Assembly (NCBI GenBank): GCA_048268245.1
Contig: JBLWVX010000005.1
Span: 56,003 to 120,002, forward strand
From: Arcobacteraceae bacterium
GTDB lineage: Bacteria > Campylobacterota > Campylobacteria > Campylobacterales > Arcobacteraceae
Direction: 5' to 3'
Length of the DNA: 64,000 nt
A program made the translations under genes and the position numbers. Position 1 is the first letter of the stretch; the number at the start of each line of letters is the position of its first letter. Below are positions 39,957 through 64,000 of the stretch, piece by piece. The notes under the pieces were generated by a model, which had not been told where the DNA came from, ran no database searches, and saw nothing but the letters and a program-made list of their open reading frames with translations.

Positions 39957-41657
39957 ATGAAAATTTCAAAACAAAAATATGCTTCGATGTATGGTCCAAC
40001 AACTGGTGATAGATTTAGATTAGCTGATACTTCATTAATAGCAAAAATTGAAAAAGATTATACTACTTATGGCGAAGAGGTTAAGTTTGGTGGTGGAAAG
40101 ACTATTAGAGACGGAATGGCTCAAAGCCCAACAGCTACAAATACGTGTGATTTGATTATTACAAATGCTACTATTATTGACTATACAGGAATTTATAAAG
40201 CTGATATAGGAATAAAAGATGGCTTAATTAGTGCTATTGGAAAAGCAGGAAATCCAAATCTTTGTGATGGTATTAGTGAAGGTTTAGAAATTGGTGCAAA
40301 TACAGAAATACTTTCAGCTGAGGGAAAAATTATTACAGCAGGGGGAATTGACTCTCATATTCACTTTATCTCTCCTGGGCAAATTGATGAAGCACTAGCT
40401 AGTGGTGTTACTTCTATGCTTGGAGGTGGAACTGGACCAAATACTGGAACAAATGCTACAACTTGTACACCTGGTGAGTGGAATATATCAAAGATGATTC
40501 AAAGTGTTGATGATATACCTATGAACTTTGGATTTATGGGTAAGGGAAATAGCTCAAGTTACGAAGCTTTAAAAATGCAAATAGAAGCTGGTGCTATGGG
40601 TCTTAAACTTCACGAAGACTGGGGAAGTACACCTAAAGCTATTGATACTTGTTTAAGTGTTGCAGATGATTTTGATATACAAGTTGCAATTCATACAGAT
40701 ACTTTAAATGAATCAGGTTTTGTAGATAATACAGTTGATAGTTTTAAAGATAGAACAATTCATACTTTTCATAGTGAGGGAGCAGGTGGTGGTCATGCCC
40801 CTGATATTATGAAAGTGGCTGGTTTAGAAAATATTTTGCCTTCAAGTACAAACCCAACACTTCCATATACAAAAAACACAATTGAAGAACACCTTGATAT
40901 GCTTATGGTTTGTCATCACTTAAGCCCTAAAATTCCTGAGGATGTAAGCTTTGCTGAAAGTAGAATCAGAGGAAATACAATCGCAGCTGAGGATGTACTT
41001 CAAGACTTAGGAGCTATTTCTATTACTAGTTCTGATTCACAAGCTATGGGAAGAGTAGGTGAAGTAATAATAAGAACTTGGCAAGTTGCTGACTCTATGA
41101 AAAAACAAAGGGGAGCTCTTGAGGGTGATGATGAAAAAAGTGATAATGAAAGAATCAAAAGATATATAGCAAAATATACAATAAACCCTGCAATTGCTTG
41201 TGGGATTGATGAGTATGTGGGAAGTGTTGAAGTTGGAAAGATGGCTGATTTAGTTTTATGGAATAGGGCATTTTTTGGAGTAAAACCTGAGCTTGTTCTA
41301 AAAGGTGGATTTATAGCCCTTGCAATGATGGGAGATAGTAATGCTTCTATTCCTACACCTGAACCAAATATGTATAGACCTATGTTTGGAAGTTTAGGAA
41401 AGGCTAGTGCTAAAACAAGTGCAATTTTTACTTCAAAAGTAGCAAGTGAAAATCTAGCTAGTAAACTTGGGATTAATAAACAAGTTTTAAGTGTAAAAAA
41501 CACAAGAAACATAGGTAAAAAAGATATGAAACTAAATGATTTCATAGGTGATGTACAAGTTGATCCAGAAACTTATGATGTAAGAGTTGATGGAAAACTA
41601 ATAGAGTCAAACTATGTAGAAGAAGTACCAATGGCTAAGAAATACTTCTTATTTTAA
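39957..41657 (+). CDS. ureC: Urease alpha (catalytic) subunit
   Basis: [37 protein letters not shown]. Confidence 0.98.
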
Positions 41658-45161: not shown

Positions 45162-45302
45162 TTTTTTGAGAGTGTTTAGAGTTTTGTGTCAGTAACTTAT
45201 AGTTCCTAGAATTTTAGAATAGGTAATCTTACTAATCCTAATTTACGCCAAAAAGTACAGGTTTTGAATCAGAATTTAACAATCAATATTTATTCATAAA
45301 AT

Positions 45303-46265
45303 TTAAAAATCCAATGGTGATTTAATATCACCTTTATTTAATTCTTTTACTACATGTGTATATATCATCGTAGTTTCTATAGATTTATGTCCTAAAAGTT
45401 CTTGAATGCTTCGTATATCTGTACCATTCTGCAAAAGATGAGTTGCATAAGAGTGTCTAAAAATATGAGAGGTTACTCTTTTATCTATATTGGATTTTTC
45501 AACTGCATTTTTTATATTTCTACTTAAAGTCACATCTAAAATATGATGTCGTCTTTGTTCACCACTTCTTGGGTCTTTCGAGATTTTATTCATAGGAAAA
45601 ACATATTGCCATTTGGTTTCAAATTTTGCTTTTGGAAATTTTCGTTCAAGTGCATAAGGTATATATACACTTCCATATCCATTTTCTAAATCTTTTTGGT
45701 GTATTTCTTTTACTTTCTCAACTTGAATTTTAAGTTCATCTTTTATTTTTAGTGGAAGTGGTAAAGTTCTATCTTTAAGTGACTTACTATCCCAAATATA
45801 GATTTTATCGTATCCGAAATCAATATCTTTTATACGTATATTTTGTGCTTCTTTCATTCTTAATCCACACCCATACATAAGTTTAACTATGAGTTGATAA
45901 ATACCTGTCATATTTAATATAATACTTCTTACTTCATTTATAGTTAAAACTACAGGAATATGCTTTCTCTCTTTTGCTCTTAAAGCTTGAATGTTCTCAT
46001 CTTTTAATGATATATTCAAAACTTGTTCATATAAAAATAATATTGCATTAAAGGCTTGGTTCTGCGTTGTAGGAGAGACATTAAACTCAGTGGCAAGATG
46101 GGTTAGGAATTGTTCAATTTCAACTTTACCCATATATTTAGGATGCTTTTTGTTATGGTATAGTATATATTTTTTAGCCCAATAGATATAGACTCTTTCT
46201 GTGCTCATACTATAATGTTTAAACCTTATCTTATCTCTCATAATATCAAGTAATTTTTTAGCCAT
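45303..46265 (-). CDS. intI: Integron integrase (tyrosine recombinase)
   Basis: [19 protein letters not shown], IntI-specific insert ([11 protein letters not shown]), [24 protein letters not shown]. Confidence 0.96.
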
Positions 46266-46440: not shown

Positions 46441-46516
46441 ATTTTATATGAATGTTTAGTTATTGAGATAATTAAGTAATAAATATATATAATGTATTGT
46501 TATTAAATAGTTAGCT
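46441..46516 (+). mobile_element. attI site; crossover G|TTAGCT at 46510/46511
   Basis: GTTAGCT upstream of divergent intI is the exact complement of R'' AGCTAAC of the first attC; left boundary approximate. Confidence 0.8.
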
Positions 46517-47037: not shown

Positions 47038-47514
47038 ATGGAATTTAGTCATTCAATACAAATAAAAGCAACACCACAAACAATTTTTAATATTTATGCA
47101 GATGTGAATAACTGGTCAATATGGGATAAAGATGTTGAGTTATCCTCAATTCAAGGGGAATTTAAAACTGGTGTTAATGGTGAATTAAAACCAAAAGGTG
47201 CTCCTAGATCAAAAATATTTTTTACAGAAGTTATAAAAGATAAATCTTTTACAACATTAGGAAAATTACCATTATGTAAAATGTATTTTGAACATACTAT
47301 AAATACAATAAATGAGAATATAACAGAAGTCACTCATACAATTAAATTTATAGGGTTTTTATCCCCAGTATTTGGAAAATTAATTGGAAATGGTATTAAA
47401 AAAAGTCTACCTGATGTACTTGAAGGACTGAAATTGCATGCAGAAGCTAACAAAACCTTGGAAGAAAAACAAGGGTGTACTTGCGATAGTTTAAAGCTTT
47501 ATCTTGTAAACTAA
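47038..47514 (+). CDS. SRPBCC/polyketide cyclase family protein (cassette 1); reads into attC
   Basis: I.ATP..IF..Y.D...W..WD signature. Confidence 0.82.
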   Translation: MEFSHSIQIKATPQTIFNIYADVNNWSIWDKDVELSSIQGEFKTGVNGELKPKGAPRSKIFFTEVIKDKSFTTLGKLPLCKMYFEHTINTINENITEVTHTIKFIGFLSPVFGKLIGNGIKKSLPDVLEGLKLHAEANKTLEEKQGCTCDSLKLYLVN

Positions 47515-47577
47515 GAAAAAAATAGATTTGAACTATCAAGTATAAAACACCCTTGTTTTTCAAGTCCAACGTTATGC
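47445..47577 (+). mobile_element. attC site 1 (133 bp)
   Basis: R'' AGCTAAC, L'' CTTGGAAG with extrahelical G, AAAAACAAGGGTGT/ACACCCTTGTTTTT stem, R' GTTATGC. Confidence 0.92.
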
Positions 47578-48028: not shown

Positions 48029-48033
48029 CTCCT

Positions 48034-48171
48034 ATAAACTCTAAATTTTGGAAGAAAATCAGAAAATCTTACTTATCGACTTTATAAGCTTTATGTAGAG
48101 ATATAATTTCTTCCAAAAAGTGTTCAAGAAGTAAAATTTATAGATTCTCTAAAATCAGACTTTTTGAACAA
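48034..48171 (+). repeat. Double-hairpin intergenic repeat, copy A
   Basis: TTTTGGAAGAAA..TTTCTTCCAAAA and TGTTCAAGAAGT..ACTTTTTGAACA stems; similar to the reverse complement of 59454-59585. Confidence 0.75.
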
Positions 48172-48177
48172 TAAAAA

Positions 48178-48873
48178 CTACTTTTTGTAAACTGCAAAGA
48201 AATGTGGTACACTTGGTACTTGGTCATCATCATAAGCTAAAAAACTTTGCTCTTTTAGATTTTGTACTGTTATGAACTCATCTATTTCTGATTTACTTAA
48301 AGGTTTTGGTATTTCATCTTCTTTTTCATGTTCACCTCTACTTCTACATGAAACTAAAATATATCCACTTTTTGAAAGAAGTGAAGTCATAGAAGTTCTT
48401 GCTTTTTTTCTATACGCATCTGGCAAAACTTGAATAGTATTACACTCATAAACTACATCAAAACTCTCAACCCATTCCTTTGGATAGTCAAACAAATCAG
48501 CTACTACAAACTGAACTTTTGTATTTGGGTATCTGTTTTTACAAAGCTCTATAGCTTTTGGTGAAATATCAAAAGCAACAACTTCAAAACCAAACTCACT
48601 TAAAGCCTGAGCATCATCACCAACTCCACAGCCAATAACACAAGCTTTTTTGTTTGGCTTGTTTATAGAATTTTCTTTTAGCCAGGATACAAGATAAGGA
48701 CTTGGTTCTAAATCAGCCCAAAATACCTTCGTATAGTCACCTTTGGCACTCTCATAAATATGGTCAAACCATTGAGTTGGTTTGTCTTCTTCATAATAAG
48801 ACTTAACCATATCTTTGTACTTATCTGCTTCAAAAGTATCTTTGTTTAGAAAATCAAATTCATTCATAATCAT
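48178..48873 (-). CDS. Class I SAM-dependent methyltransferase (TPMT-like)
   Basis: VIGCGVGDDA, FDISP.AI, ADLF; RBS-supported start at 48873. Confidence 0.88.
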   Translation of the reverse strand: MIMNEFDFLNKDTFEADKYKDMVKSYYEEDKPTQWFDHIYESAKGDYTKVFWADLEPSPYLVSWLKENSINKPNKKACVIGCGVGDDAQALSEFGFEVVAFDISPKAIELCKNRYPNTKVQFVVADLFDYPKEWVESFDVVYECNTIQVLPDAYRKKARTSMTSLLSKSGYILVSCRSRGEHEKEDEIPKPLSKSEIDEFITVQNLKEQSFLAYDDDQVPSVPHFFAVYKK

Positions 48874-49001: not shown

Positions 49002-49211
49002 ATGGGAAGAAATGAAATTTTTGAGGAAGCATTAGATTTACATGTTACTGAAAAGTTTTTACTTATAGAAGAACTTTTAAAAAGTCTTGACAAACCTGAT
49101 ATTGAAATAAATAAAGTTTGGGAAGAAGAAGCTCAAAAAAGACTTGATTTATATAAACAAGGAAAAATAGAAGCTTTATCTGAAGAAGAGTTCTTTTCAA
49201 ATGAACATTAA
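49002..49211 (+). CDS. Addiction module antitoxin component
   Basis: AL.L...E...L.EELL.SL..W.EEA.KR..Y..G pattern; overlaps the toxin gene. Confidence 0.85.
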   Translation: MGRNEIFEEALDLHVTEKFLLIEELLKSLDKPDIEINKVWEEEAQKRLDLYKQGKIEALSEEEFFSNEH

Positions 49212-49491
49212 ATACCTAAAACTAGCAAAATTAGAATTTGATGACTCAAAATCTTATTATGAATTGCAACAAAAAGGTTTGGGAAAAAGCTTTGAAAATG
49301 AAGTGAGAAATTCTATAAACAGAATAAAAAGATTTCCTAACTCATATCAAAAAATCTTCAATGAAATAAGAAGATGTACACTACATAAATTTCCTCACAA
49401 TATATTATATACACAACAAAAAGATTATATTTTAATAATTGCGATTGCACATCAACATAGAAAACCTGATTATTGGGTTGGTAGATTATAA
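49201..49491 (+). CDS. RelE/ParE-family toxin
   Basis: YYE....GLG..F, RR..L..FP, IAIAHQHRKPDYW. Confidence 0.9.
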   Translation: MNIKYLKLAKLEFDDSKSYYELQQKGLGKSFENEVRNSINRIKRFPNSYQKIFNEIRRCTLHKFPHNILYTQQKDYILIIAIAHQHRKPDYWVGRL

Positions 49492-55978: not shown

Positions 55979-56692
55979 TTGATAGAAATTATATTAGCTT
56001 TGGTTACATTTTTTACTTCTGCTATTGCTGCTATTGTTGGTCTTGGTGGAGGTATGATGTTGATTGCAGTTCTTCCATCTTTTTTACCTTTAAACGCGAT
56101 AATCCCTGTGCATGGTCTAACTCAAATGTCAAGTAATATAAGTCGTGCAGTTTTTGCTTACAAAGATATACAGTATGAAACTATTCCTATGTTCTTAATT
56201 GGTTCACTTTTAGGAGTAGGGCTTTTTGCTAGTATAATCTCAGTTATTTCACTAGAGTTTGTTCCTTTGTTTATAGGGACATATATACTTCTATCTTTAT
56301 GGTCAAAAAAGTTTAATAATAAAATCAAAAAGTTTGAAAACTACTATATCTTAGGTTTTTTCCAATCAGGATTATCTGTAGTTGTTGGTGCAACTGGACC
56401 TTTGACTCTTACTTTACTTTATAAAGACTATATTGATAAAAATAAGGTAGTAGCCACAAGTGCGGCTCTTATGAGTATCTCACATCTTTTAAAAATTCTT
56501 GTATTTATCTATTTTGGTTTTGTATTTTTTGATTATATAGAACTTATAATAGTTATGATAATAGCTGCTATTTTAGGCTCATATGTAGGAACAAAACTAA
56601 GAAATAAAATAGATGGAAAAAGGTTTGCTGTTGTTTTAAAACTTCTATTATCTATTTTAGCTATTAAGTTAATAGTTGAACTATTTATTTAG
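55979..56692 (+). CDS. TauE/SafE family (sulfite exporter-like) membrane protein
   Basis: G.GGG, GATGP, GSYVG motifs. Confidence 0.85.
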   Translation: MIEIILALVTFFTSAIAAIVGLGGGMMLIAVLPSFLPLNAIIPVHGLTQMSSNISRAVFAYKDIQYETIPMFLIGSLLGVGLFASIISVISLEFVPLFIGTYILLSLWSKKFNNKIKKFENYYILGFFQSGLSVVVGATGPLTLTLLYKDYIDKNKVVATSAALMSISHLLKILVFIYFGFVFFDYIELIIVMIIAAILGSYVGTKLRNKIDGKRFAVVLKLLLSILAIKLIVELFI

Positions 56693-57726
56693 TGATTAAA
56701 AGTAAGACTTACTTTCGTTCCCACTGATACTTGGCTTTTTATATCAATAGTTATTTCTAAGAGATCACATAGCTTTCTTACTATACTCATACCAATTCCA
56801 AGACCATTTTCATTCTCTTTATAATATCTTTGAAATACCTTATTTACATTTTTTATTCCTACTCCTGTATCTTCTATAATAAGGCTATTATCTTTTATAG
56901 TTATGATTACTTTTTCATTTTTTTTGTTATATTTACAAGCATTTGTTAGAAGGTTGTCTATTATTCTATCAACTGCATTTTTATTACTTTTGATAGTTAA
57001 ATCATCTTGTAGTTTTTCAAAAGTCACTCTTGGATATAGCTTTTCTAAAACTTCGATTTTATTATCAACTAGTTCTTTTAGTGAGATTTCTTCATCTTTT
57101 ATAATTTGCTGGGGATTTATAAACTCTAAATTTTTATATAAAGATGAAATAGTTTTAGCACTTAATTCTATTCTCTCAATCTCTTTAAAATCACCTTTTC
57201 TTCTTAAAAGTTTTGTGTTTAATAAAATAGATGTAGCAGGAGTATTTAAATCATGAATCAAGTCTTTTAAGAAAGTCTCTAGTAAGTTTACAGCCTCTTT
57301 CATAGGTCGTATTGAGTACATAGCAAAGGCTATTGATATAAGAAGTATAAAAATGAAAATAACAATACTAAATTTAAATATTTTTATTAAAAAGTCATCA
57401 TAAACTTTTTGATATTTGTTTTTATCATAAATCACTTTTAATAAATAAGGATTTTTTGATGGGGTTTTAAAGTATGCACAAAGCCCTTCTTTACAATCAT
57501 AAAGTTTAAAAGTCTCTTTTTTGTTGGTATATTCAACAATATCTAAACTAAATTTATCACTTTGAAAATCAAAAGTATAATCTTTCATCTGATATAAAAT
57601 ATTCTCTTTTATATAGTTTATTCTATCTTGATGGTACATATAAAGTACGATACTTGAAAAAATAATAAGAGGAATAAAAAATAAAAAGGTAGTTGTTAAT
57701 AGATATTTTTTTTCATAGTTCTTCAA
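56689..57726 (-). CDS. Sensor histidine kinase
   Basis: HDLNTP, NACKYN, DTGVGI, GLGIG. Confidence 0.9.
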   Translation of the reverse strand: MKNYEKKYLLTTTFLFFIPLIIFSSIVLYMYHQDRINYIKENILYQMKDYTFDFQSDKFSLDIVEYTNKKETFKLYDCKEGLCAYFKTPSKNPYLLKVIYDKNKYQKVYDDFLIKIFKFSIVIFIFILLISIAFAMYSIRPMKEAVNLLETFLKDLIHDLNTPATSILLNTKLLRRKGDFKEIERIELSAKTISSLYKNLEFINPQQIIKDEEISLKELVDNKIEVLEKLYPRVTFEKLQDDLTIKSNKNAVDRIIDNLLTNACKYNKKNEKVIITIKDNSLIIEDTGVGIKNVNKVFQRYYKENENGLGIGMSIVRKLCDLLEITIDIKSQVSVGTKVSLTFNH

Positions 57727-59222: not shown

Positions 59223-59426
59223 ATGAAAATTATCGTAAAAAGTTTAGCATTAGTATTAGTAGGTCTTACAAGTTTAGTAGCACTTGAAGTGAATGACAAA
59301 GTTAACAATGAACAACAAATCGTAAAAGTTAAAGTTAAAAAACAAGTAGAGCAAACTAAACAAGAAGCAAAAGATGTTAAAGAAGATGAAAAATTAAAAG
59401 ATTTTAAAGACTCTATTAAAAAGTAA
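59223..59426 (+). CDS. Small exported charged protein
   Basis: AGGAG RBS; signal peptide. Confidence 0.65.
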   Translation: MKIIVKSLALVLVGLTSLVALEVNDKVNNEQQIVKVKVKKQVEQTKQEAKDVKEDEKLKDFKDSIKK

Positions 59427-59453
59427 ATCTTTATATTAAAAAAAAGATTCTTG

Positions 59454-59585
59454 TTGTTCAAAAAGTCTTAAGGGGTTGAGAAAATCTGACCCTCTAAATT
59501 CTACTTCTTGAACACTTTTTGGATAAAAAGGTTATTGGAATAATAAGTGAGGTTTTCTTATTTTGTTCCAAAACTTAGAGGTTAT
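59454..59585 (-). repeat. Double-hairpin intergenic repeat, copy B
   Basis: Minus strand reads CTCTAAGTTTTGGAACAAAATAAGAAAACCTCACTTAT..TCCAAAAAGTGTTCAAGAAGTAGAATTTA..AGACTTTTTGAACAA, matching copy A. Confidence 0.75.
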
Positions 59586-59625
59586 GAAAAATATGTAATT
59601 TTGTGTTTCCTTTTCTATTGACAGA

Positions 59626-60021
59626 TTAACCTGATGGTGATTTAATATAGTTTGATAGCTCAATTAAATTACTATCAGGATCTCTTAGATATATAGAATT
59701 AATTGGTCCATTTGCTCCTGTTCTTGAAACTATTCCTTCTTCAATTTTTATATTATTAATATTTAGGTATTCTATTACTTGATTTAAATCTTCATCTATT
59801 ATAAAACATAAATCAGCACTTCCAGTTTCTATATTTAAAGCTTTTGGTTCAAATTCCTTACCAAGTTGATGTAGATTTATTTTTTGATTTCCAAACTTTA
59901 GAGCAATCCTAGTCTTTTTAAAAACTTCTTTAGACATTCCTAAAATAGAATAAAATTCTACAGTTTTATTTATATCTTTTACTGTTAAAACTAAATGATC
60001 TAATCTATTTATATTAATCAT
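59626..60021 (-). CDS. VOC/glyoxalase family protein
   Basis: LDHLVLTV, QKINLH, GSADLCF, SIYLRDPD.NLIE. Confidence 0.92.
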   Translation of the reverse strand: MININRLDHLVLTVKDINKTVEFYSILGMSKEVFKKTRIALKFGNQKINLHQLGKEFEPKALNIETGSADLCFIIDEDLNQVIEYLNINNIKIEEGIVSRTGANGPINSIYLRDPDSNLIELSNYIKSPSG

Positions 60022-60022
60022 A

Positions 60023-62371
60023 TTAAGCTTTCACGTTTAGATAATCTGATATTTGTACTTCATCAATCTGTTCATCTAACAAATACTCTTTTCCATATTT
60101 TTTGTATACTTCAGTTTTTAGGAATAATTCAAAAATATCTTTATCAAGATGTTTGTCTTTTACCATAAAACTTAATATCTTTATAGATTCTGATAATGTT
60201 TTACTATCCTTATATGGCCTATCTGATGCTGTAAGTGCTTCAAAAACATCAGCAAGGGCTAAAACTCTTGATGGTATAGGCATATCATCTTTTGTAAGTT
60301 TTTTTGGGTAACCTGTGCCTATTAATGTTTCATGATGAGCTCCTGCATATAATGGTACATTTTTTAAATTTTCAGGTAAAGGTAATTGTTCTAACATCTT
60401 AATTGTCATTTTAATATGGTCTTGAATTTTATATCTCTCTTCATTTGTTAGTGTTCCCCTTGAAATAGACAAATTATAAACTTCGCCCTGATTATAAAGG
60501 TTTTTTGGTGCTTTTATTTTAAATCCATATTTTAAATCTTCATCTTCCTTTGAATCTTCTCTTTGTATAATATGCCAGCTTTTATCTGATAATAAATTTT
60601 CTATTCTTGGTAAACTATCATCCTTATCTTGAAATCTATTCTTTTCTTCTCTTGATAGACCTAGTTTATCATCAAAATTCCTCATCCAAGTTCTTGAAGC
60701 AATCTCTTTTATTCTAGTTTTATACTCCTCATTTAAAAACTCAGCACCTAAGTTCATATTAGCTATGAATTCGAAGTCATCTTTTAATTTATTCTGTTCA
60801 ACCTTTAGCCAGTTTTCTATCTCTTGTTTATTTTCACCATGCAATTCTTTTTTATAAGATTCTATGATTAAATCTCTAAAAATAACTTCAAATCTAGTTC
60901 TTATTTCATGAATTCTATTATATATAGTTTCTAATTTTGTTGCTTTATCAACGACATACTCAGGAGTTGTAACCTTTCCACAATCATGTAACCATGCAGA
61001 AATACTTATTTCTCTAAATTCATCTTCACTTTTTATTTTAAAATCTTTAAAAATACCTTCATCACATTTATTTGCTTCTTCTATAATCATAAGTGCTAAC
61101 TCTGGAACTCTATTACAATGACCACCTGTGTATTTAGATTTTTCATCTATTGCTGTTGCTATTAATTTTATAAAAGAATCCATAAGTTCTTTTTGATTTT
61201 CTTCATAAGTTTTTATTGAAACTGACATTTTCCATAGTGAGTCTGATACATCATGAATTTCTTTTATATGAGAAGGATTTTTTTTAACTTCATCAAATTT
61301 CCTTTTTTTGATTTTTTCATTCTCTTCAACTATTTTATGTAAGGGATTAACAATCAATTTTGAGCTTAAAACAATTAATGGAATAGATATAATCAAAAAT
61401 ACTATAAAAGTTACTAGAACAAACCAATATATTTCTTTTACGTATGGTTTCATTATATTTTCAATGGGTGAAACTATATATAAAACTTCACTATTATCAA
61501 AAAGAGAAAATTTATTATAGAAGAATTTATTATTAGCTAATTTTTCATTAAGTGAATCTTGATTTAAAGAACTTTTATTGTTATTTATTTTATTTTTTGA
61601 GACTTTATTATAAGTAATAATTTGACCATTTTTATCAAATAAAAAAACTTCACTACCTTCAACAAGTTTTTCTTTTTTTATTAATTTATCTATATTATTT
61701 AAAGTTACATCAATTCCAATGACAGTATTATCACTATTTTTTATTTTTTTAGCATAACTAATACCAAATTTATTTAAGAATTTAAACAAATAAGGTTCTG
61801 TTTTTATTGAAGTTGTTGAATTTATAGATTCTTTATACCAAGGTCTTTTAGTAATATCGTATTTTGTATTATTTTTTGTAGATTGAATTTGTTTTAAATT
61901 TGAGTCTAAATATTCTCTATATTCAATATTATCTATTATTTTAATCACTAACCATAAAGCTTTTTTAGGTGCATTAAAACTATCTCTAAACTCATCATTA
62001 AGATTTATAAGCTCATAATAAGAACCATCTTTATGTCCAACATAAATTGAATAAATATAGTCATTATTTTTAATATCAGAAATAAAAAGATTTAAAATAT
62101 CATGTCTTACATTTGGAATAGGTTTTTTAGTTAAAAAAGGAACATTTTCAATCAATCTAATAAAAGATTCACTATTTCTAATATAATTATTAGCTTCTTG
62201 TTTTAAATTTACAGATAATTGTTTAAATGAGTTTTGAGTACTCTCTAGTGCAATTTTTTTACTTAAATTATATTGCATAACTAACATTACAGTAACTACA
62301 ATAGTAGTAACTATGAAAAATAAACCCAAAATTGTAGGTTTTATTTTTATAGAAAAATTATTTAAACTCAT
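60023..62371 (-). CDS. Membrane Cache-HAMP HD-GYP phosphodiesterase
   Basis: RPWY Cache motif, YTGGHC.RV, WLHDCGK, HHE..GTGYP, ADVFEALTA.DRPYK. Confidence 0.9.
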   Translation of the reverse strand: MSLNNFSIKIKPTILGLFFIVTTIVVTVMLVMQYNLSKKIALESTQNSFKQLSVNLKQEANNYIRNSESFIRLIENVPFLTKKPIPNVRHDILNLFISDIKNNDYIYSIYVGHKDGSYYELINLNDEFRDSFNAPKKALWLVIKIIDNIEYREYLDSNLKQIQSTKNNTKYDITKRPWYKESINSTTSIKTEPYLFKFLNKFGISYAKKIKNSDNTVIGIDVTLNNIDKLIKKEKLVEGSEVFLFDKNGQIITYNKVSKNKINNNKSSLNQDSLNEKLANNKFFYNKFSLFDNSEVLYIVSPIENIMKPYVKEIYWFVLVTFIVFLIISIPLIVLSSKLIVNPLHKIVEENEKIKKRKFDEVKKNPSHIKEIHDVSDSLWKMSVSIKTYEENQKELMDSFIKLIATAIDEKSKYTGGHCNRVPELALMIIEEANKCDEGIFKDFKIKSEDEFREISISAWLHDCGKVTTPEYVVDKATKLETIYNRIHEIRTRFEVIFRDLIIESYKKELHGENKQEIENWLKVEQNKLKDDFEFIANMNLGAEFLNEEYKTRIKEIASRTWMRNFDDKLGLSREEKNRFQDKDDSLPRIENLLSDKSWHIIQREDSKEDEDLKYGFKIKAPKNLYNQGEVYNLSISRGTLTNEERYKIQDHIKMTIKMLEQLPLPENLKNVPLYAGAHHETLIGTGYPKKLTKDDMPIPSRVLALADVFEALTASDRPYKDSKTLSESIKILSFMVKDKHLDKDIFELFLKTEVYKKYGKEYLLDEQIDEVQISDYLNVKA

Positions 62372-62385
62372 TATTATCTTCCTTC

Positions 62386-62454
62386 GTATAACGTTTAAAA
62401 TGAGCCAATAAATTGCCCGCAGGGTAATTTATTGGCTCCACTGATTTGTTAGCT
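62386..62454 (-). mobile_element. attC site 3 (69 bp, short type)
   Basis: Minus strand: R'' AGCTAAC, AGTG-G-AGC with extrahelical G, 17-bp stem GAGCCAATAAATTACCC/GGGCAATTTATTGGCTC, R' GTTATAC. Confidence 0.88.
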
Positions 62455-62475
62455 CTTTATAATTTCAATATCAGG

Positions 62476-62570
62476 TGATAGTTCAAATCTACTTTTTTCT
62501 TAGTTTACAAGATAAAATTTTAAACTACTGCAAGTAGACCCTTGTTTTTCTTTCAAAGGTTTTGTTAGGT
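62476..62570 (-). mobile_element. Truncated attC (left ~95 bp; about 90% identical to attC1 by eye)
   Basis: ACCTAACAAAACCTTTGAAAGAAAAACAAGGGTCTACTTGC..GATTTGAACTATCA; right arm missing. Confidence 0.88.
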
Positions 62571-62571
62571 T

Positions 62572-62852
62572 TTATGCCTTGCTTAAGTTAGACCAGCTTC
62601 TTCCATTAGAGTTGGTTACAAGTACAGAACCTTTAACACCAGTTAGTTTAATAGCTCTTTTTGCTTTTTCCAATATATCACTTTTCGTATAATTTCCAGA
62701 TATGGTGTATTCACCATCAGGCATATTATAATCAATACCATCATCTGACTTATAATATCACTAAATCCTTCATCACTCATTGCTTGATATAAAATATTAT
62801 ACTCACTAGAGTTTACATCATGTAATACAATTCTTACTGTAAATGTTGCCAC
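62572..62852 (-). pseudogene. GhoS/DUF2622-like cassette gene with a 1-nt frameshift
   Basis: MATFTVRIVLHD..Y..LYQAM..EGFS; after the shift near 62750, SDDGIDYNMPDGEY..SVLVT..GRSW.NL, with stop abutting R''. Confidence 0.75.
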
Positions 62853-62888
62853 TAAATTATTCTTTTATATTTTTATAGAAACAAGTAA

Positions 62889-62960
62889 ACCTAACTATTT
62901 ATTAATCATACATTATATGGAAAATAGCCTAAGAATCAACAATAAACATACATTAAAATG
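62889..62960 (-). mobile_element. Second attI-like site with no adjacent integrase; crossover G|TTAGGT
   Basis: 25/28 match to attI1; GTTAGGT is complementary to the cassette's R'' ACCTAAC. Confidence 0.75.
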
Positions 62961-63208
62961 TTATAAAAACGAGTTTTAATAACAAGTTCAACAAACTGTA
63001 GTTTTAAAATCATTGTTTCCATCGTTTTTTAGATAGTTTCTAAAAAAAGTATAATATACGTAGCTATCTTTATATGCTAATATTGTATTTTGAGATATTA
63101 TCGTTTAAAGATTACAATTATGTTTTACATGTAACAGCAGGGATAGTTTTACTTAATATATTTTTATTATTTGGGTAAAATATTTATCAATTCAATTTAG
63201 GAAATATT

Positions 63209-63421
63209 ATGCCAATCATAAACGTAAAAATGACCCATGAAGATGGAGGTGCTACAAAAGAGCAAAAAGAAGAGTTATCAAAAAAACTAACAGATGCTTT
63301 TGTAGAAGTTTTTGGAAGAGGTGAAAAAACTTGTGTAGTAACTATTGATGAAATTTCAACTGACAACTATGCAATAGGTGGAAAGACTATTTCAAATATT
63401 AGAAAAGAACAAGCAGATTAA
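63209..63421 (+). CDS. 4-oxalocrotonate tautomerase family protein
   Basis: Catalytic Pro1 (MPIINVK), EQK.EL, GG. Confidence 0.9.
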   Translation: MPIINVKMTHEDGGATKEQKEELSKKLTDAFVEVFGRGEKTCVVTIDEISTDNYAIGGKTISNIRKEQAD

Positions 63422-64000
63422 ACTGCTTGATTCTTTTCTTTCTTAATATGTAAATCAAGTTGAGGAAATGGTATTTCTATATCATGTTTATATAGAGCAT
63501 TGTAAATAAGGATTAAGAAATCAGACTTTAAAGAGTTTGGTTGAATTTTATCATTTGCTTTTATCCAAACTAAAAGCTCTAAATCAACGCTACTTGTATT
63601 CATATTTTCAAGTCTTATTTCAGGCTTTTTATCTTCATTGTCTTTTACATATTTTAAATCACTATTTTTTAACTCTTCTAATACTACTTCTTTTACTTTT
63701 TCTATTTTTGTACCATAAGCAACACCAAAAGGTACATGAAGTCTTCTTGATGGGTCTTCTAGTGTCCAGTTGATTACATTGTTTTGAATAAAAGATGAGT
63801 TTGGAACTACAATATCAATATTATCAAAAGTTTTAATAGTAGTTGATCTTATTCTTATATCTGTAACTGTTCCTTTTAATAAATCATTTATTTCTATAAT
63901 ATCACCAATTCTAATAGTTCTTTCAAACATTAAAATCACACCAGCGATTAAGTTTGAAACAACTGTTTGTAAACCAAAACCAATACCAATAGATAATGCC
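63418..64000 (-). CDS. MscS-family mechanosensitive channel (C-terminal part)
   Basis: GIGFGLQ..N..AG, GDIIE, VPNS, GVAYG, IEIPFPQ. Confidence 0.9.
   Translation of the reverse strand, partial: ALSIGIGFGLQTVVSNLIAGVILMFERTIRIGDIIEINDLLKGTVTDIRIRSTTIKTFDNIDIVVPNSSFIQNNVINWTLEDPSRRLHVPFGVAYGTKIEKVKEVVLEELKNSDLKYVKDNEDKKPEIRLENMNTSSVDLELLVWIKANDKIQPNSLKSDFLILIYNALYKHDIEIPFPQLDLHIKKEKNQAV

Follow-up and report, generated by a model that had tools for sequence, protein, structure and literature searches.

In the usual picture of the integron, one integrase gene stands beside one docking site, and arrays without an integrase are clusters of attC sites of unclear status. The attI1 docking site is a simple site of L and R boxes with direct repeats upstream of it. 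Integrase-less arrays are described as CALINs, for which the criterion is at least two attC sites and no integron integrase in the cluster (Cury et al. 2016). In the portion of that study that treats them (PMC4889954), CALINs are defined by attC sites only, attI having been searched as exact class 1-3 sequences; the origins proposed there are integrase loss, rearrangement and secondary-site insertion, and intI pseudogenes lie near 15 of 279 CALINs. Passages of a preprint (bioRxiv 10.1101/2025.06.18.660453) describe CALINs as mobilisable in trans and report, for Xanthomonas, inactivated intI genes, CALINs at conserved loci and arrays that were frozen after the inactivation. In clinical arrays, attI and partial attI copies are recombined by IntI1, according to the relevant passages of Gonzales Machuca et al. 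(2026; PMC12901181). The titles and opening lines of abstracts on Arcobacter integrons give no account of the chromosomal integrons of the Arcobacteraceae.

The window, by which we mean the whole stretch of 64,000 nucleotides that was analysed (G000:C5:56003-120002, its right edge being the end of the contig), belongs to an Arcobacteraceae genome with a G+C content of 28%. It holds a complete integron and, on the minus strand some distance away, a second array headed by its own attI-type core, which we call site 2. Like a CALIN, the site-2 array has no intI nearby and lies in a genome that encodes IntI elsewhere; it differs from CALINs, as that portion of Cury et al. presents them, in keeping an attI core, a promoter-like element and an accessory box, and in being headed by a module that is multi-copy and family-wide. 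Progressive integrase loss and arrays kept at fixed chromosomal positions across species recall Xanthomonas as the preprint passages describe it, but in the Arcobacteraceae, platforms that share one intI deletion head differing cassettes, a pattern that speaks for continuing exchange. The Delta-attI-type cassettes of clinical arrays offer a further likeness in their extra attI copies away from intI, which act as recombination sites for an IntI provided from elsewhere and are matched here by tandem platforms inside the arrays of one genome (G138). As far as the passages cited go, however, the clinical copies amount to small portions of attI within the arrays of mobile class 1 and 2 integrons, whereas the Arcobacteraceae copies are chromosomal and dispersed, carry a putative promoter region and an intI stump, and head arrays of their own. 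The Arcobacteraceae case joins these traits in one: a chromosomal, dispersed, multi-copy head module composed of attI, putative promoter and the stump of an intI gene, lacking intI itself and bearing marks of ongoing exchange.

The attI-type core of site 2 and its array

The features of the two loci on which the analysis rests are as follows.

45303-46265, minus strand: integron integrase gene, 320 aa (TIGR02249, 407.3 bits against a cut-off of 265)
46487-46516, plus strand: attI site of the complete integron, with the junction GTTAGCT (46510-46516) complementing R'' AGCTAAC (47445-47451)
62940-62954, minus strand: conserved box upstream, AATGTATGTTTATTG, in which two half sites contain GTT
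62912-62939, minus strand: candidate cassette promoter Pc (TTGATT 62939-62934, 16 nt, TATAAT 62917-62912), overlapping the attI core
62889-62918, minus strand: attI-type core of the orphan platform, a 25/28 match to the intI-side attI
62917-62912, 62907-62901, 62900-62896 and 62895-62889, minus strand: parts of that core, namely the -10 hexamer TATAAT, the L box GATTAAT, the spacer AAATA and the R box GTTAGGT
62571-62894, minus strand: body of the first cassette, a frameshifted small ORF (frames 62852-62643 and 62766-62572)
62476-62570, minus strand: 5' part of the first-cassette attC (R'' ACCTAAC 62570-62564, with L'' and the loop), without the half that bears L' and R'
62386-62454, minus strand: short complete attC-like site (R'' AGCTAAC 62454-62448, 17-bp stem, R' GTTATAC 62392-62386)
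59626-62371, minus strand: two-gene unit, dCache/HD-GYP (60023-62371) and VOC/glyoxalase-fold (59626-60021), by Pfam
59452-59587, minus strand: ORF-less attC-like terminal element, el3, which starts with TCATAAC, includes ..CCAAAAAGTGTTCAAG.. and closes the array

Read directly, the 28 nt beside intI (ATATAATGTATTGTTATTAAATAGTTAG, 46487-46514, plus strand) and those of site 2 (ATATAATGTATGATTAATAAATAGTTAG, 62918-62891, minus strand) are identical at 25 positions, and a repeat search returned the same two sites as an inverted pair of 28 nt at 89%. Farther upstream, AATGTTTAGTTATTG on the intI side and the box AATGTATGTTTATTG of site 2 (62954-62940) agree at 12 of 15 positions, each box beginning 36 nt before its respective core in an ungapped alignment. 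When both strands of the 2,681,560-base genome were scanned for 28-mers with at most five mismatches to the intI-side site, the only matches were site 2 and two copies on contig C14, which likewise head cassette-like units. Chance is excluded as the source of the similarity.

The core has the layout of an attI simple site, with an L box, five bases and an R box that opens with G|TTA, and its predicted crossover falls between G62895 and T62894; the L box reads GTTCAAT in most copies and GATTAAT at site 2. It resembles attI1 in having an imperfect inverted pair, GATTAAT/GTTAGGT, five bases apart, a G|TT crossover and upstream GTT boxes, and differs from it in lacking sequence similarity and in holding the -10 hexamer of the candidate Pc inside the conserved core. 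Across the platforms aligned, ATGTT.TTTGTT is nearly invariant, and by analogy with attI1 the box at 62940-62954 may be an accessory region bound by IntI. The R'' of the first cassette, ACCTAAC (62570-62564), complements GTTAGGT (62895-62889) exactly, so that cassette sits, as had rightly been read from the letters, at a precise attI x attC junction. The element TTGATT-16-TATAAT is the top promoter-like match in 62300-63250 (score 10/12), an AT-rich interval in which such matches are common (12 found against 7.3 expected). Its -35-like and -10 blocks are kept in the intI-less platforms of other genomes, and it may act as a promoter of the cassettes.

A tblastn search with the window's IntI found no match at E<=10 in 59301-63450, and the genes to the right of site 2 are, by Pfam, a tautomerase and a truncated MscS. 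Of the marks of a complete integron, site 2 has an attI at the head of the array with a G|TT crossover and attC hairpins that bound the cassettes; an intI adjoining the attI is absent. The sole full-length integron integrase gene of the genome is the one at 45303-46265, whose product spans positions 1-313 of the 315 in the TIGR02249 profile, and the only other IntI-like piece that tblastn located in the genome is a 42-aa fragment on contig C18, adjoining a degenerate copy of the core. The attI of the complete integron is joined to the first cassette of the main array, to which R'' AGCTAAC (47445-47451), at the start of the attC of 47445-47577, belongs. This source of IntI lies on the opposite strand, 16.4 kb from site 2, and its integrase is the candidate enzyme for action in trans on that site. 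An earlier note on this DNA had claimed the 25/28 match, the weaker match upstream, the exact complementarity of junction and R'', the presence of a true attI-type core in which a promoter-like element is embedded, and the lack of an adjacent integrase, with a tautomerase and MscS as the next genes; all of these were borne out.

The ORF of the first cassette belongs to no family in Pfam or NCBIfam. In its first 87 nt, the attC that follows shares 90% identity with the one belonging to the first cassette of the main array, yet the truncated copy has no stable fold (z +0.52), compared with -25.2 kcal/mol (z -6.40) for the intact one. A remnant of 22 nt separates it from the short attC, which folds as DNA at -15.6 kcal/mol (z -5.59; 0 of 200 shuffles as good). 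The HD-GYP/VOC unit begins 15 nt past the R' of the short attC and is probably a cassette; it is absent at the orthologous locus of three related genomes (G001, G002 and G003), in which the closest HD-GYP matches lie elsewhere at 70-73% identity. In the main array, a homologue of el3 follows the second attC at about 48030-48180 on the plus strand and closes the array's first part; both elements have modest folds (z -2.2 and -2.0). Tallied by hand annotation and folding, the site-2 array thus comprises a complete attC, a truncated one and an attC-like terminal element, with intI 16.4 kb off. The exact 43-nt head sequence of site 2 had 0 matches among metagenome contigs.

Partial decay is evident in the frameshifted first ORF, in the attC without its 3' half and in the deletion of adjoining backbone genes, and the array as a whole looks run down. 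Between the two arrays, from about 50.7 to 59.4 kb, the genes are ordinary-looking (glycosyltransferase 9, exonuclease, globin, TetR, AhpC, TauE and a two-component pair), so that the two platforms face each other across backbone and are not parts of one long array. An inversion that split a single array was considered and rejected: an inversion cannot create a second attI, and the platforms differ upstream.

The outer end of the platform and the loss of intI

Two further features lie upstream of the core.

62955-62999, minus strand: outer end of the platform (..ACAGTTTGTTGAACTTGTTATTAAAACTCG..), the junction left by intI loss, with a microhomology fusion to the LysR remnant
62987-63100 and 63089-63172: backbone remnants, a piece of a LysR-family regulator and the 3' end of an MFS transporter, by BLAST to G001 and G003 and by Pfam

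The sequence TTTGTTGAACTTGTT, 77 nt upstream of the site-2 core, has one mismatch to GTTGTTGAACTTGTT, the boundary of a widespread intI-less lineage, and from this position and this match site 2 is a further-shortened member of that lineage. Past the stop codon of intI, DNA of this type recurs both in the window (45195-45300) and in other complete integrons. In its common long form, the intI-less module aligns colinearly, at 76-80%, with the ~282 nt immediately upstream of the core in the complete integron of G138, a stretch that reaches just past the intI start codon; beyond it come about ten degenerate intI codons and then the type of DNA found beyond the intI stop codon. Boundary GTTGTTGAACTTGTT was located by colinearity BLAST and a 15-nt approximate match, plain BLAST being insensitive in AT-rich DNA and placing the outer boundary in only the three most similar complete integrons. 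At up to three mismatches it was present within 700 nt upstream in 12 of 57 instances of the core, typically 307-318 nt from it.

The neighbourhood of the core was surveyed in 58 instances, defined by at most three mismatches with AGTT retained, a set that includes this genome and a few probable chance hits in coding DNA. Within 1.5 kb upstream, at an IntI threshold of E<=1e-2, six instances have a full-length IntI (one of them frameshifted), seven rows are fragments and 45 have nothing. The seven fragment rows are made up of the first 15 residues (twice), residues 1-135 and 271-320 (once each), and one remnant counted three times. Since other deletion forms are present besides the widespread one, intI has been lost on more than one occasion. 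As far as its sequence tells, the site-2 platform is a decayed integron by origin. The earlier note had set a satellite insertion platform against a simple decayed second integron, but with sequence from beyond the intI stop codon at the outer end of the platform, that was a false choice.

At the locus itself, the 290 nt from the site-2 core to the tautomerase gene contain LysR and MFS remnants and no trace of intI. By comparison with the sister species, about 1.7 kb and an ABM-domain gene are missing from the window, and three backbone genes flanking site 2 are deleted. In G003 the locus is plain backbone, with small ORFs, LysR, MFS, the ABM protein, the tautomerase and MscS, and no platform was found there; nor is there a platform at this locus in G002, the IntI of which is 99% identical to that of the window and the integron of which is located between histidine kinase and TauE genes. 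G001 carries an intI-less module of ~330 nt between the LysR stop codon and the small ORFs, with the same type of boundary as site 2. Its core, TTATAATGTATACTTAATAAATAATTA, has the crossover G changed to A (AATAATTA), as drift in a dead site would give, and behind it stand two ORFs unrelated to those of the window, followed by the same terminal element, el3, which closes this array as well. Because both the LysR side and the terminal-element side are conserved and the boundary is of the same type, the platforms of the window's genome and of G001 are thus orthologous, with different cargo. The comparison of the locus across relatives, which the earlier note had recommended, points to cassette turnover between the window's genome and G001.

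The core and its cassettes across the Arcobacteraceae

At no more than one mismatch, the 27-nt core (TATAAT, L box, AAATA, G|TTA) occurs in 74 of 151 Arcobacteraceae genomes, and a reversed control pattern at the same threshold has 0 matches in each of the 151. With up to three mismatches allowed, the pattern ATATAATGTANNNTYAWTAAATAGTTA is found in 114 of the 151, at up to 22 copies per genome; the window's genome has at least three further copies. The orphan platform that the earlier note had described is therefore real but not singular, being one of a family-wide, multi-copy class.

IntI homologues at E<=1e-20 are present in 59 of the 151 genomes, many of them as fragments or with internal stops. 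By a hand tally, an IntI match is lacking in 36 of the 74 genomes that bear the core, and in one genus IntI is found in 0 of 22 genomes and the core, at no more than one mismatch, in 8 of 22. With about half of the core-bearing genomes lacking a detectable intI, the conservation of the core cannot be owed solely to ongoing use by IntI; promoter function or recent horizontal spread may lie behind it.

Among 49 public IntI loci, three of which have fewer than 3 nt of upstream sequence, ten have a best core match of at most five mismatches in the 600 nt upstream of intI. Nine of these matches, in Arcobacteraceae, Sulfurimonas, Sulfurovum and Campylobacterales records, lie 230-268 nt from the intI start on the strand that faces away from intI; the tenth, at position 1, is an evident chance hit. 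The core also occupies the attI position beside full-length IntI matches in G002, G080, G138 and G173. On this comparative evidence, the core is the attI of the IntI clade to which the window's enzyme belongs.

The earlier note had proposed to test whether core matches are followed by cassettes with a matching R'/R''. An exact reverse complement of the 7-nt junction (GTT and four bases) is present within 1.5 kb downstream in 37 of the 58 instances and absent from that interval in 21. When each junction was paired with the downstream DNA of another instance, the count was 10.9 +/- 2.6, with a maximum of 19 in 500 permutations, and the 1.5 kb upstream, taken as a control, gave 12 of 58. All three clear cases in the window's genome match at 7 of 7 positions. 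In an alignment of 39 intI-less instances, the core columns of which were selected by the search and are uninformative on conservation, the 70 nt upstream are moderately conserved, and conservation drops to background within a few bases past GTTA.

Exchange after the loss of intI has its clearest evidence in other genomes. Over 1,528 nt, a 15-codon stump of intI included, the platforms of two other species, G095 and G021, agree at 97.4%; the alignment ends one base past the core, and nothing beyond it aligns. Behind the core the first cassettes are separate ones, and in both the R'' is an exact match, at +510 and +320. A third genome, G064, shares 464 nt at 97.2%, again ending at the core. Full-length IntI is encoded elsewhere in the genome of G095, a fragment only in G021, and G064 has no IntI match. 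The same intI-deleted lineage thus heads different cassettes in different genomes, and from these breaks, together with the shared boundary and the differing cassettes behind it, IntI-type recombination at intI-less attI sites is the most economical reading.

Proposed use of the platform in trans and other readings

We put at roughly four in five the probability that site 2 is the attI core and overlapping cassette promoter of an intI-less platform, and that its cassette was placed there by IntI acting in trans. An old deletion would have removed intI in a platform lineage that spread through the Arcobacteraceae, joining DNA from beyond the intI stop to what remains, in degenerate form, of the first few codons and to the control region next to attI, and further internal deletions in the site-2 copy would have left ~110 nt. 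The array that this head now carries would run from the frameshifted cassette through the truncated attC, the short intact attC and the HD-GYP/VOC unit to the terminal element, its first cassette having been placed by an IntI-type attI x attC recombination at G|TT. With the loss of intI predating the differences in cassettes, the enzyme would have acted in trans, and the only intact source in this genome would be the IntI 16 kb off on the opposite strand. For the platforms of the Arcobacteraceae, use in trans is well supported by the sequences compared, above all G095 and G021 and the differing cassettes behind a shared boundary. To that extent the service in trans that the earlier note had envisaged gains support; for the copy in the window, which shows decay, such use is putative and unproven.

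The decay at site 2 invites the view that the platform is simply the dead front of a second integron, into which all insertions were made while its own intI was present and none has been made since. The frameshifted ORF, the truncated attC that does not fold and the deleted neighbours at site 2 agree with it, as do the mutated crossover G of the G001 orthologue and the 36 core-bearing genomes of 74 (hand tally) without an IntI match. What renders it unlikely is that the boundary left by the loss of intI is common to site 2, G001 and other genera, in which the first cassettes differ and have junctions of their own, and that G095 and G021 share the intI stump in nearly identical DNA and carry cassettes that differ from the crossover onward. 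A conserved motif that is only the promoter or leader of a regulon, with no recombination site, would account for the perfect TATAAT with a -35-like hexamer, for the persistence of the motif in genomes without intI and for the ribosome-binding site and start codon that follow, at many loci, 20-60 nt on. It would leave unexplained why homology among the copies ends exactly after GTTA, why the next 4 nt complement a downstream R'' above chance (37 of 58 against 10.9), and why the motif stands at the attI position beside intact intI genes, and we regard it as very improbable.

A different origin would be an attG-type insertion, in which the cassette entered a secondary site, an ordinary chromosomal sequence that happens to resemble attI. 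Integron integrases can insert at non-att genomic sites, as reported in the part of a preprint that bears on this point (bioRxiv 10.1101/2022.09.11.507474), and the absence of a platform at the locus in G002 and G003 would be in keeping with such an event. We give it almost no credence: the ~110 nt that precede the crossover share homology with integron platforms and include the candidate promoter, the accessory box and the outer boundary; the 27-nt core is of the type found beside intact intI genes; and no unrelated site in the genome comes within five mismatches of it.

In the Arcobacteraceae a docking site and its candidate promoter survive without an integrase, conserved in the family, many to a genome, and with a signature of continued exchange; it would seem from this that a single integrase is able to serve several sites of gene capture. 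If one integrase does serve many platforms, cassettes would be captured and expressed outside the array next to intI as well, a tally of complete integrons would understate the gene-capture capacity of a genome, and attI-aware annotation of integrase-less arrays would be worthwhile. The Arcobacteraceae core motif is a simple handle for surveying intI-less platforms.

A wider and rather doubtful extension is that the Arcobacteraceae run a distributed integron, in which intI-less modules of attI and promoter have multiplied so that one integrase, or a visiting one, has many docking sites. The modules would form a single intI-less lineage with as many as ~20 copies per genome, and transcription would restart along the arrays. 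They may move as units, either through IntI acting on the attC-like element that precedes them or through a serine recombinase. In G138, platforms stand in tandem inside arrays, every 1-3 genes; in Rfam, neither the platform nor the ~300-nt repeat of the G138 arrays has a family. An attC-like element often precedes platforms, and a serine recombinase gene lies beside two of the copies.

The notion that the platform is formally a cassette beginning at an attC crossover, G|TTGAAC, was examined separately and set aside. Conservation extends about 15-25 nt further left, and the upstream contexts are of three differing kinds (an ORF-less attC-like element, the outer flank of an integron and a serine recombinase gene), so the start of the platform is not sharp. 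The G|TTGAAC start is retained only within the idea of a distributed integron.

Further attI cores and integron remains in the genome

Outside the window, the genome (GCA_048268245.1) contains further attI-type cores on one contig, C14, and the remains of an integron on another, C18:

C14:62764-62791, minus strand: third orphan attI core, ATATAATGTATATTCAATAAATAGTTA, at the contig end
C14:12225-12252, minus strand: fourth core copy, ahead of a membrane-protein-like ORF
C18:31288-31800: decayed integron, adjoining the end of a guaA-like gene

The junction of the third core, GTTAAAC, is complementary to an R'' box, GTTTAAC, found 243 nt downstream, in an attC whose R' is altered to ATTATAC. Because the contig stops only 19 nt upstream of this core, an intI gene may yet adjoin it. 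The fourth core carries another hairpin repeat, GGTCAGGT...ACCTGAC, on both flanks; an exact R'' complement of its junction was sought and not found. On C18, what survives of intI is its start and some internal pieces (81% over 42 residues). The core there has degenerated to ATAGAATGCCTATTCAATAAATAGGTAG, in which GGT replaces the crossover GTT.

Brackets and cargo of the main integron

Directly past the intI stop codon of the window's integron, positions 45162-45300 on the plus strand show homology with the attC-like element, devoid of ORFs, that ends the arrays; the two have in common AATCTTACT.ATC ... CCAAAAAGT ... GTT..GAA. Two directly oriented copies of the element therefore bracket this integron. 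From sequence comparison between sister species, the whole 3.3-kb unit in G001 looks like an insertion relative to G003, flanked by TTTCTTTT(G/A)TAAG. The main cassette array includes the following pair; toxin-antitoxin pairs are common in the cassette arrays of chromosomal integrons.

49002-49491, plus strand: toxin-antitoxin pair with Unstab_antitox and ParE toxin domains

Tandem platforms and a candidate vehicle in other genomes

In another member of the family, the minus strand of one locus (G138:C1:1709001-1723000, L155) has a tandem series of four orphan attI cores, each followed by one to three ORFs. In the gaps between them, 600-1,000 nt long, about 12 codons of intI remain as a stump, alongside a repeat of about 300 nt, which starts AACACCCCAGAGAATGAATCTCCAC and matched no Rfam family. 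Elsewhere, the same divergent gene precedes an intI-less module in two genomes of different genera (L029, G003:C1 near 60232; L050, G141:C33 near 9971). By eye, the start of this gene reads like that of a serine recombinase, and its product could be a vehicle that moves the module.

Other features of the region

At window positions 56685-56695 the TauE gene and the histidine-kinase gene converge and share 4 nt. Sister genomes have large insertions precisely at this joint, of about 10 kb in G001 and, with the whole integron included, about 18 kb in G002; the joint is a second rearrangement hot spot of this region.

The window also contains a match to a small RNA family described from Helicobacter:

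40102-40392, minus strand: 5' ureB small RNA (RF02514), full-length Rfam match, 70.6 bits against a gathering score of 40

Such a match is unexpected in the Arcobacteraceae.
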